The position numbers were made by a program. A stretch of 64,000 nt of DNA from Escherichia coli (GTDB lineage Bacteria; Pseudomonadota; Gammaproteobacteria; Enterobacterales; Enterobacteriaceae): the NCBI RefSeq assembly GCF_017348835.2, contig NZ_CP071375.1; one strand, given 5' to 3'. Shown here in pieces: positions 26,601 to 29,600 of the stretch (within the stretch, counting starts at the first letter, position 1; the number at the start of each line of letters is the position of its first letter).

Positions 26601-29600
26601 GCTTTGGCGTGATGACCGAAGAGGAACTGAAGCTGGCTGTAGCGGCAGCGCGTAAACGTGGTGAAAAAGTGGTAATGACCAACGGTGTCTTCGATATCCT
26701 ACATGCCGGGCACGTCTCTTATCTGGCAAATGCCCGCAAGCTGGGTGACCGCTTGATTGTTGCCGTCAACAGCGATGCCTCCACCAAACGGCTGAAAGGG
26801 GATTCTCGCCCGGTAAACCCACTCGAACAGCGTATGATTGTGCTGGGCGCACTGGAAGCGGTCGACTGGGTAGTGTCGTTTGAAGAAGACACGCCGCAGC
26901 GTCTGATCGCCGGGATCCTGCCAGACCTGCTGGTGAAAGGCGGTGACTACAAACCGGAAGAGATCGCCGGGAGTAAAGAAGTCTGGGCCAACGGCGGCGA
27001 AGTGTTGGTGCTCAACTTTGAAGACGGTTGCTCGACCACTAACATTATCAAGAAGATCCAACAGGATAAAAAAGGCTAACCGGAAAGCGGTTCACAGATC
27101 TCGCTTCGTACATGGCAGGCCTATTGACGCTGTTGTTTTTTCAACCTAGAGTAAAGGAACAAGGGTAAGGGAGGATTTCTCCCCCCTCTGATGAGTTGTT
27201 AGTAAGTCGGGAAACTTAACAGTAACAACACAACCAGTATGATGACGAGCTTCATCATAACCCTTTCCTTCTATAAGGCCCCTTCCTCGGGAGGGGCTTT
27301 CCCGTTTCAGCCCCTTGCTGACTCCCCGATTGTTGATGAGCGCCGGACCCCGCGCAATGCTTTCCCTGAAGCAGTTTTGCCTTCCCCGAGCGGTCACGCA
27401 AAACGCTGCAACGTCCTGAGCATTTGCACCTTTTAGCGGAACGCAGATATAAAAAATCCCCGGCTTTTTGGGCCAGGGATATGTGTTAATGAAACCTTCT
27501 TGACGCTGATTTTTTTTCAACCTAAAGTAAAGGAACAAGGGTGAGGGAGGATTTCTCCCCCCTCTGATTGGCTGTTAATAAGCTGCGAAACTTACGAGTA
27601 ACAACACAATCAGTATGATGACGAGCTTCATCATAACCCTTTCCTTCTGTAAGGCCCCTTCCTCGGGAGGGGCTTTCCCGTTTCAGCCCTTTGCTGACTC
27701 CCCGATTGTTGATGAGCGCCGGACCTCGCGCAACGCTTTCCCTGAAGCAGTTTTGCCTTCCCCGAGCAGTCACGCAAAACGCTGCAACAGCCTGATCATT
27801 TGCACCTTTTAGCGGAACGCAGATATAAAAAATCCCCGGCTTTTTGTGCCAGGGATGTTCATAGCTGAAAATTTATTCTACGTTTTCGGCGACGGGAGTT
27901 GTTGAGGTTAAGGGTGAAGTCAATGCAGCCAGTGAGCCGCCTGAAACGCCAATTTCATTGAGCAAGGAGTCAATCAGTGGTGCCTGTGTGCGGTAAGAGA
28001 GTGCGGCTGATAATGCTTGTTCCGCCAGGTTTCCGCCCCCCACATTACCCGTGTTTGCATCCCCCGCAGTACCACCACGATTCAGACCATCGACCTGAAT
28101 AATCTTGATACCGTCAATGGACTTCATCGGCTCAACGGATTTCTCAATTACCGCAGGCAGCGCCTGCAATAATGCCAGTTTGAATTTAAGGCTGGTTTGT
28201 TCATCAGAAAGTACGTTGATAGCATCGTTCAGCGCACGTTGCGCTTCTGCTTCCGCCAGACCTTTTTTACGCGTAGCTTCAGCTAACTCAACGATCGCCG
28301 CCGCCTGCATCTCTGCCGCTTCTTTCTCTGCTTTCGCCCGCACGGTCAGTTCAACCGCTTTGGTTTCCGCATCCTGCGCTGCGGCAATCAGCGCCACCTG
28401 CTTGGCACGATCGGCTTCGGCAGTCTGGCGAGTGGTTTCAACGTTTTGTTGGGCGCTTACTGCTTCTGCGAGTGCAAGGTTAGCACGCGCTTCTGCCTGG
28501 GACTGTTGTTCCGATTTGGCGGCAATAGCGATCGATTTCGTCTGGTTAGCGATTTCGGTGACCTGCTGCTGTTCGATCTCTTTAATGCGAACTTCACGTT
28601 CAGCTTCAACTTTTCTTGAGCGGACGGCCTGTTCGCGGTCGATTTCTGTTTCCTGAATCTGTCGTTCAGCCAGAATTCGCGTCTGCTCTGCTTCACGACG
28701 ACGTTCAGCTTCAAAAGCCGCAATTTTCGCATTCTGCTCAGCGGTACGGGTTTTAACCTGCTGCTCCTGCTCAAGCGTCATAAACGCTTCTTGTTGTTCA
28801 ATCTCCAACTTGCGCGAAAGTGCATCACGGTTTTTCTCACGCACCGCAACTTCTACATCCTGTTCAACTTCGTTACGTTCGCGACGACGACGCTCCGTCT
28901 CCTGAGTCAGTTTGGTTAAACCTTCGGCGTCAAAGGCATTGTTCGGATTGAAATGTTCTTTCGAGGTCTGGTTAAAGTTGGTAAGTGAAACGCTTTCCAG
29001 TTCCAGGCCGTTTTTCGACAGATCTTCAGCTACGGTATTTTGTACTCCCTGCACGAAGTTCTCGCGGGTATCCTGTAACTCATGCATGGTCATTTGTGCA
29101 GCTGTTGCACGGAGGGCATCGACGAATTTATCTTCAACCAACATACGTAAATCTTCTGGTGATAGCGTGCGTTGCCCCAACGTTTGGGCAGCGGTGGCAA
29201 TCCCTTCTACTGAAGGTTTTACCCGCACAAAGAAAGCGACTACTACATCGACGCGCATACGATCTTTCGTAATCAGGCTATCAATGGTTGAGCGGCTGAC
29301 TTCCAGCTTCAGAGTATTCATATTGATGGGGATTATTTCATGAAAGATCGGCATCACGATTGCGCCACCGCTCATTACCACTTTTTGCCCACCTAAACCA
29401 GTACGAACAAAAGCTTGCTCTGCCGAAGCGCGACGATAGAGCCTGGCGAAAATAATTCCAATAATAAACAGAATGCATACGGCAATAATCGCGGTAAACA
29501 TCCAGGAGGGCACAGAATTAACAATATCATCCATTATTAAATTTCCTTTTGATTAATAAATTACAATATTTGGGGCCAGGGATTGTTTTCCGCCAAATAT

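Follow-up and report, generated by a model that had tools for sequence, protein, structure and literature searches.

Tandem sibE/ibsE and sibD/ibsD toxin-antitoxin modules in the hldE-yqiK gap of an Escherichia coli genome

The tandem repeat between hldE and yqiK and what it encodes

We analyzed a stretch of 64,000 nucleotides (nt) of Escherichia coli DNA (assembly GCF_017348835.2, contig NZ_CP071375.1; hereafter, the window), and in particular the intergenic gap on which the genes hldE and yqiK converge. A first-pass annotation had proposed that this gap holds two duplicated type I toxin-antitoxin modules of the ibs/sib family, each with a small hydrophobic toxin peptide (Ibs) on the minus strand and an antisense small RNA (sRNA), Sib, on the plus strand. 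The features of the region are listed in Table 1, and all positions are those of the window unless another locus is named.

Table 1. Features placed in and around the hldE-yqiK gap. ORF, open reading frame; aa, amino acids.
Feature	Position	Strand	Basis and remarks
hldE	25646..27079	+	477-aa ORF; so named in PE164 (locus 100% identical) and K-12; left flank, converges on the gap
sibE promoter	27124..27152	+	-35 TTGACG 27124-27129, 17-nt spacer, -10 TAGAGT 27147-27152; 9/12 matches (promoter scan)
SibE sRNA, 144 nt	27159..27302	+	K-12 sibE (b4611), transferred via K-12 alignment; terminator hairpin ~27275-27300
ibsE ORF, 19 aa + stop, MMKLVIILVVLLLLSFPTY	27199..27258	-	Translation; Pfam; K-12 IbsE; WP_010723221.1, ibsE in PE164
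ibsE mRNA, ~165 nt, predicted	27159..27323	-	5' end ~27323, by 376-nt offset from the mapped ibsD start
ibsE promoter, predicted, weak	27329..27357	-	-35 TTGCGC 27357-27352; -10 AACAAT 27334-27329
Internal copy of yqiK-type intrinsic terminator	27446..27480	-	9-bp stem 27480-27456, then TTTTTATATC; terminator scan
Linker marking the tandem junction	27481..27499		Unrepeated 19 nt
sibD promoter	27500..27528	+	-35 TTGACG 27500-27505, 17-nt spacer, -10 TAAAGT 27523-27528; 9/12 matches (promoter scan)
SibD sRNA, 144 nt	27535..27678	+	K-12 sibD (b4447), transferred via K-12 alignment; ends in terminator hairpin
ibsD ORF, 19 aa + stop, MMKLVIILIVLLLVSFAAY	27575..27634	-	Translation; Pfam; K-12 IbsD; Ibs family toxin WP_001387081.1 in PE164
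ibsD mRNA, ~165 nt	27535..27699	-	5' end A ~27699; primers of PMC2943612 placed on the window
ibsD promoter, predicted hexamers	27705..27733	-	-35 TTGCGC 27733-27728; -10 AACAAT 27710-27705
yqiK intrinsic terminator	27822..27856	-	9-bp stem 27856-27832, then TTTTTATATC; directly upstream of the ibsD promoter region
yqiK (flotillin family)	27873..29534	-	553-aa ORF; so named in PE164 and K-12; right flank, converges on the gap
65-aa ORF, copy 1		+	K-12 counterpart 59 aa, C-terminus shifted
65-aa ORF, copy 2		+	K-12: no ORF of at least 30 aa
130-aa ORF		-	K-12 counterpart 76 aa
83-aa ORF		-	K-12 counterpart 47 aa

Tandem Repeats Finder reported an array at 27124-27856 with a period of 376, 1.9 copies, 93% matches, 0% indels and a score of 1305, and a base-by-base comparison of the copies gave 33 differences in 376 nt. 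These results bear out the description of two units of ~376 bp that are ~93% identical and lie between hldE and yqiK. The limits given for them, 27113-27860, marked the right region but were a few bases too wide on each side. The repeated segment proper is 357 nt long (27124-27480 and 27500-27856). The 19-nt linker between the copies is not repeated, being 47% identical to the bases 3' of copy 2, and the similarity of the copies ends at the end of a hairpin, that is, at 27480 in copy 1 and at 27856 in copy 2.

Each copy encodes on the minus strand a hydrophobic peptide of 19 aa, MMKLVIILVVLLLLSFPTY in copy 1 and MMKLVIILIVLLLVSFAAY in copy 2, exactly as had been claimed. Both peptides matched the Pfam family PF13956 (Ibs_toxin) from end to end (profile positions 1-19 of 19), with scores of 46.3 bits for IbsE and 40.3 bits for IbsD against a cut-off of 27 bits; because the tool requires at least 20 aa, four in-frame codons from upstream were added to each query. 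In addition, MMKLVIILVVLLLLSFPTY is identical to IbsE of E. coli K-12 and MMKLVIILIVLLLVSFAAY to IbsD, and the assignment to the Ibs family was thus upheld. The window is E. coli chromosomal DNA, and in strain PE164, which is 100% identical over this locus, RefSeq annotates both 19-aa ORFs as Ibs toxins.

The opposite strand was examined by a whole-window Rfam scan, which placed the proposed Sib sRNAs where they had been expected. The family RF00113 (SIB_RNA) was matched on the plus strand at 27124-27273 with 141.0 bits and at 27500-27649 with 147.7 bits, in both cases over model positions 1-147 of 147 and far above the gathering score of 56 bits. The E-values of 4e-29 and 9e-31 lie far beyond chance. 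These matches begin at the -35 hexamer and end before the terminator, and their limits are therefore those of the model and not those of the transcript. The -10 boxes of the two sib promoters sit 7 nt 5' of the Sib +1 annotated in K-12, and the TTGAC of the -35 box is unvaried in five of the five K-12 units. The sibD promoter was placed upstream of the SibD +1 used in the experiments of PMC2943612; this start, ACAAGGGTGAGGG, is also that in the pAKA-SibD and SP6-SibD primers of the same study. The predicted folds had a minimum free energy of -51.8 kcal/mol (z-score -3.6) for SibE and of -54.7 kcal/mol (z-score -4.4) for SibD, each with an 11-bp hairpin at the 3' end. From these features, each Sib appears to be a discrete unit of ~140 nt that has a promoter and an intrinsic terminator of its own, and the 19-aa ORFs lie wholly antisense to it (Table 1). 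A further promoter-like site was noted on the plus strand inside the ibsE ORF (27216-27243, TTAACA-16-TATGAT, 10/12 matches). We read it as probably due to chance, since it is missing from copy 2 and lies within an ibs ORF.

We then compared the region with that of K-12 MG1655, in which sibE/ibsE (b4611/b4666) and sibD/ibsD (b4447/b4664) occupy the same hldE-yqiK locus in the same order and orientation and encode the same peptides. The whole intergenic region is 98% identical over 793 nt, and the Sib/ibs cores are 100% identical. The sibE sequence agrees with that of K-12 as far as Sib +111 (27269); in both copies the overlap with ibs is identical, and differences begin at Sib +112. They comprise ~20 substitutions as well as two 1-nt indels, none of which touches the Sib/ibs overlap, and fall in the Sib terminator loop, the ibs promoter and the upstream part. 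By this alignment, copy 1, next to hldE, can be assigned as the E module and copy 2, next to yqiK, as the D module. That is, the element is already known, and its earlier identification was correct.

A mechanical search for ORFs across the repeat also gives longer frames, namely two of 65 aa on the plus strand and one each of 130 and 83 aa on the minus strand. It could be argued that these are the real genes and that the 19-aa ORFs are incidental, given that both 65-aa ORFs are open and equal in length in the two copies; such equality is, however, expected from copies that are 93% identical without indels. No Pfam or NCBIfam family was found above threshold for any of the long ORFs, which moreover run across promoters, terminators and antisense RNA. 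Because of 1-nt indels, they are shifted, lost or shortened in K-12 (Table 1). We consider the chance that they are the true genes to be minimal, and we agree with the first-pass annotation in regarding them as artefacts of the repeat.

Transcripts, terminators and the proposed action of each module

The start site of ibsD has been mapped by primer extension in K-12 (PMC2943612). We placed it on the window by means of the primers MscIID+1 and ID+ERI, which are described in that study as covering 'nt -21 to +165 of ibsD'. The predicted ibs promoters were placed from the published primer sequences and from conservation between genera, and would have the weak arrangement TTGCGC-17 nt-AACAAT. In a cross-genus alignment (Escherichia, Citrobacter, Kluyvera, Phytobacter), no variation was seen in CGATTGTT, in the ibs -10 box or in the TTG of the -35 box (CAA on the opposite strand). 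The predicted fold of the ibsD mRNA had -68.1 kcal/mol (z-score -5.1) and that of the ibsE mRNA -61.9 kcal/mol (z-score -3.3). In these models an 8-bp hairpin would enclose the AUGAUG start, and the Shine-Dalgarno region would be paired to the 3' end of the mRNA.

Two further elements were noticed around the ibs start sites. A CACGCAAAA box stands at 27395-27403 and 27771-27779, ~72-80 nt upstream of the predicted ibs starts, and is kept in the hldE-linked units of Escherichia, Citrobacter, Kluyvera and Phytobacter amid variable sequence; Han et al. 2010 (PMC2943612) mentioned unpublished putative transcription-factor sites upstream of ibs promoters. The first ~15 nt of the ibs mRNA (GUCAGCAAGGGGCUGA; 27309-27322 and 27685-27698) can fold into a 5'-terminal hairpin, of which the CAGC/GCTG stem is unvaried in the five K-12 units and in other genera and the loop is variable. 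Since this hairpin lies past the 3' end of Sib, it would be a conserved feature specific to ibs.

Each repeat copy ends in a terminator hairpin on the minus strand. The hairpin at 27480-27456 had a predicted fold of -15.3 kcal/mol and that at 27856-27832 of -21.2 kcal/mol (z-score -4.3), and comparison of the copies showed the two terminators to be paralogous. The sequence ATAAAAAATCCCCGGCTTT..GCCAGGGA is unvaried 3' of yqiK in the eight other enterobacterial genomes of the cross-genus alignment; in E. albertii and Escherichia sp. E1V33, the 3' stem arm of the yqiK terminator varies. In species with a single module, this hairpin stands directly 3' of yqiK, which indicates that it is the ancestral yqiK terminator and was duplicated along with the module.

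The orientation of the flanking genes suggests a role for these terminators. As hldE and yqiK converge, read-through from hldE would give harmless RNA of the Sib sense, whereas read-through from yqiK would give RNA of the toxin sense. We therefore think that the terminators upstream of each ibs promoter probably shield the toxin genes from transcription coming from yqiK or from the upstream copy, and such an insulator role would explain the invariance of the yqiK terminator across genera. At K-12 sibC, too, the sequence has the terminator of a convergent gene (serA) just upstream of the ibs promoter region. On the other side of the gap, a weak terminator-like hairpin (AACCGCTTTCCGGTT then AGCCTTTTTT) was observed on the minus strand at 27078-27092, over the hldE stop codon. 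Transcripts of the ibsE sense could be stopped by it before they enter hldE as antisense RNA. On the plus strand the hairpin is not followed by a T run, so that transcription of hldE may continue into sibE.

The action of each module can be pictured as follows. From a weak minus-strand promoter, an ibs mRNA of ~165 nt would be made and translated into a hydrophobic membrane peptide of 19 residues, and from a strong plus-strand promoter would come the 144-nt Sib, which is perfectly complementary to ibs over the entire coding region and the ribosome-binding site. This perfect complementarity is inherent in the antisense layout. Sib would pair first at the segments called TRD1, inside the ORF, and TRD2, in the translation initiation region, and the pairing would cause repression and degradation of the cognate ibs mRNA. 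That is, the toxin would be made only if Sib drops or ibs transcription increases, and Ibs in excess would depolarise the inner membrane and stop growth.

This picture follows the work on K-12, in which Sib transcripts are documented and the pairing of Sib with ibs extends outward from TRD1 and TRD2, with repression and degradation of the mRNA (PMC2943612). Repression and cognate specificity have been shown there for SibC/ibsC and SibD/ibsD (PMC2943612). An excess of IbsC depolarises the membrane within minutes and induces the psp genes (PMC8309996), and Salmonella IbsA is reported to bind subunits a and b of Fo, to inhibit Fo of the ATP synthase and to lower ATP (preprint 10.1101/2025.05.26.656083). 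The ldr/rdl systems (LDR repeats) and zor/orz also combine a hydrophobic toxin with an antisense RNA and stand in tandem in one intergenic region (PMC2887945), but their sequences are unrelated. Their antitoxin RNAs pair with the 5' untranslated region (e.g. OrzO with that of zorO), whereas Sib is special in covering the whole ORF together with the initiation region (PMC2943612).

Several points weigh against taking the two units as functional modules of this family. No NCBIfam model recognizes either 19-aa peptide, and the assignment to the family therefore depends on Pfam and on the identity with K-12 IbsE and IbsD. IbsE is annotated as 'toxic peptide' in K-12, but IbsD as 'putative toxic peptide'. 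A consensus promoter scan did not find the ibs promoters, whose hexamers fall below its threshold and are our own reading. The putative function in this strain is carried over from K-12 by identical sequence, and the insulator role of the terminators and the fold of the ibs mRNA are predictions from the sequence. Weighing these points against the matches to Pfam, Rfam and K-12, we put at about 0.96 the probability that the hldE-yqiK gap carries two type I toxin-antitoxin modules in tandem, orthologous to sibE/ibsE and sibD/ibsD of K-12.

Composition, age and copy number of the unit

In order to define the unit, we aligned both units of the window with K-12 sibA, sibB and sibC (five units in all). 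In K-12, sibA/ibsA-sibB/ibsB stand in tandem between yegL and mdtA and sibC/ibsC stands between fau and serA; they belong to the same family and encode Ibs peptides of 18-19 aa. A core of ~205 nt, from the -35 box of Sib through the Sib terminator to the 5' end of ibs, is common to all of them, although the K-12 sibA/B/C cores are only ~77-80% identical to D and E. Conservation across the family ends ~20 nt past the Sib terminator. Beyond it, the ibs promoter and upstream region of sibA/B/C are unrelated to those of D and E, and the remaining ~150 nt are common only to D and E. We infer that the 376-bp unit is composed of a Sib-family core of ~205 nt and a locus-specific part of ~150 nt, which contains the ibs promoter region and the yqiK terminator. 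The A/B duplication of K-12, with a period of 335 nt, is an event of its own. As A and B have their own shared right-hand part, the two tandem pairs are separate local duplications.

Across species, a scan with a degenerate Sib-core pattern (one genome per species) gave 68 loci. At the hldE-linked locus, a single copy is found in Citrobacter, Kluyvera, Phytobacter, one further enterobacterium and Salmonella arizonae, and tandem copies in E. coli, E. albertii and Escherichia sp. E1V33. The single-copy units of Citrobacter, Kluyvera, Phytobacter and Salmonella are positional orthologues with cores 83-90% identical to those described here, and have the same Sib promoter, core, Sib terminator, ibs -10 box and invariant yqiK terminator. 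In the hldE-linked unit of Citrobacter sp. FP75, the Sib terminator hairpin is absent (locus coordinates ~5860-5880), and 32 nt have been deleted between two direct repeats of AGCCCCTT, with the ibs ORF and the yqiK terminator still in place.

The presence of Sib-like units at at least three chromosomal loci per genome (3 to 11 places), together with a few plasmid-labelled records that carry such units, might suggest that the 376-bp unit is mobile or has spread horizontally and is not a resident chromosomal duplication. The hldE-linked copy is, however, at the same site in several genera, the sequence beyond the ~205-nt core is locus-specific, and neither a transposase nor terminal repeats are present. 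Only 15 of 72,556 plasmid records matched, with sizes of 0.3-4.9 Mb; 14 of the 15 are predicted to be non-mobilizable, and the context was yegI-mdtA where checked. Those inspected or sized were chromosomal fragments or whole chromosomes filed as plasmids, and we therefore set aside the idea of plasmid-borne Ibs/Sib. Horizontal spread was also rejected in PMC2887945. We give a mobile origin scarcely any credence and regard the tandem modules as a resident duplication.

As observations on these records, several PLSDB 'plasmids' of 4.8-4.9 Mb that match Sib units are evidently chromosomes. In E. coli MS 198-1 (NZ_CP146689.1, 3702-4747), four tandem ibs genes lie between a yegL homologue and mdtA, where K-12 has two; this record, of 66.8 kb, is labelled a plasmid and carries ordinary chromosomal genes.

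The relative age of the duplication can be estimated from the TRD1 segment. According to Han et al. 2010 (PMC2943612), cognate specificity is determined by two variable regions, TRD1 (~+46 to +68) and TRD2 (+99 to +115). The TRD1 segment of E. coli D is the same as that of E. albertii copy 2, and between E and E. albertii copy 1 there are 2 differences in 28 positions, whereas D and E of E. coli differ from each other at 9. This pattern indicates that the duplication is older than the split between E. coli and E. albertii.

The copies had been described as diverged in both peptide and sRNA, and this was found to be so. IbsE and IbsD differ at four residues (V9I, L14V, P17A and T18A), and the sRNA carries 12 of the 33 differences between the copies, at Sib +9, +35, +36, +38, +44, +49, +50, +52, +61, +62, +76 and +115. 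Five of these are in TRD1, four just 5' of TRD1 and one in TRD2. In the right-hand part, the two copies of the window differ at 8 sites, and copy 2 and K-12 sibD at 13; the variant CTGAAGCAG is common to both copies of the window and is in neither K-12 copy. This mosaic, seen in a sample of about ten genomes, suggests that the copies have exchanged sequence in the right-hand part.

Divergent Escherichia lineages were also observed. E. coli 64A:C and Escherichia sp. E1V33 have two hldE-linked copies each, with peptide C-termini ...ISFQAY or ...VSFQAY, and ...ISFHAY, and with TRD1 unlike both D and E. By this comparison, the specificity segment appears to evolve fast, and the rest of the core to be nearly fixed.

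Within E. coli, we counted the tandem junction in 5426 complete genomes. The query consisted of 70 nt across the unique linker, with flanks shorter than the megablast word, and was found in 3929 genomes (72%); 15 surplus junction places hint at rare third copies. A query of 748 nt had given coverage of at least 80% in 5415 of the 5426 genomes, as if two copies were near-universal. This conclusion was ruled out, because a single unit can take up the alignments of both halves of a tandem query, which are then merged into one place. In a listing of the spread of the matches, the drop in coverage from 100% to 95% comes at a rank that agrees with the junction count.

The strains HH97, 22272 and SYNB1934 have a single unit each. 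That of HH97 is of the E type throughout, and in 22272 and in SYNB1934, which derives from Nissle, an E-type left part is followed by a D-like right part. SCPM-O-B-8794, the single-copy representative of the species 'E. coli', has a core of the E type and a divergent, more D-like right part. Every single-copy allele examined retains an IbsE-type core and one complete module. The alleles sampled look like collapses of the tandem by unequal recombination, and since the D copy would have been lost repeatedly in this way, it appears to be dispensable.

Such losses bear on the question of whether the repeats are inert relics, like the old 'QUAD' intergenic repeats, so that the ORFs and Rfam matches would reflect ancestry only. 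The absence of the tandem junction from ~28% of complete E. coli genomes and the single unit of the three sampled strains mean that one copy is dispensable, and one Citrobacter genome has lost the Sib terminator. On the other hand, every collapse allele examined keeps one full module, and in the Sib/ibs cores there is 100% identity to K-12, with differences confined to the remainder of the unit. The ibs ORF, promoters and terminators of the hldE-linked module are intact across Escherichia, Citrobacter, Kluyvera and Phytobacter, and the K-12 experiments show transcripts, toxicity and repression (PMC2943612). We thus regard inertness as highly improbable and retain the reading as two toxin-antitoxin modules.

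Two variations around yqiK and ibsD are recorded here as well. In E. coli EC24, yqiK is annotated as a frameshifted pseudogene (locus coordinates 1450-1775), and neither ibs module is disrupted. In K-12, one additional C upstream of ibsD sets a 67-aa TTG-initiated ORF in frame with ibsD (locus coordinates 2623-2826); this ORF begins upstream of the mapped transcription start of ibsD and would therefore matter only for read-through from yqiK.

Other features of the window and implications

Elsewhere in the window, the Rfam scan gave a flavin mononucleotide (FMN) riboswitch (RF00050, 120.9 bits) on the plus strand at 31116-31264 and a match to naRNA4 (RF02564, 79.3 bits), an intergenic element of the REP type, at 19134-19204. 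A single tRNA gene lies on the minus strand at 6732-6807; it has the anticodon CAT and was called tRNA-Met by ARAGORN. At the gene level, CAT is also the anticodon of the minor isoleucine tRNA.

The above results may be joined in a tentative picture, which as a whole we think is rather less probable than not. The co-duplicated yqiK terminator would act as an insulator, and the CACGCAAAA box would be the site of a regulator that times the toxin. The flanks would be homogenised by gene conversion while TRD1 is kept different, so that two pairs that do not cross-react are preserved; and the D copy would be expendable, having been lost independently in about one quarter of E. coli genomes.

For annotation, the value of the region is that genes of 60 nt and antisense RNAs are easily missed, and that it yields spurious ORFs of 65-130 aa. 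Rfam coordinates that are used as the limits of sib genes need correcting, as they include the promoter from the -35 box onward and leave out the terminator. To the known element the present analysis makes modest additions, namely that ~205 of the 376 nt are the family core, that the yqiK terminator was duplicated together with the module, and that the second copy is polymorphic in E. coli. This polymorphism is a natural experiment on the use of a second Ibs/Sib pair that does not cross-react with the first.

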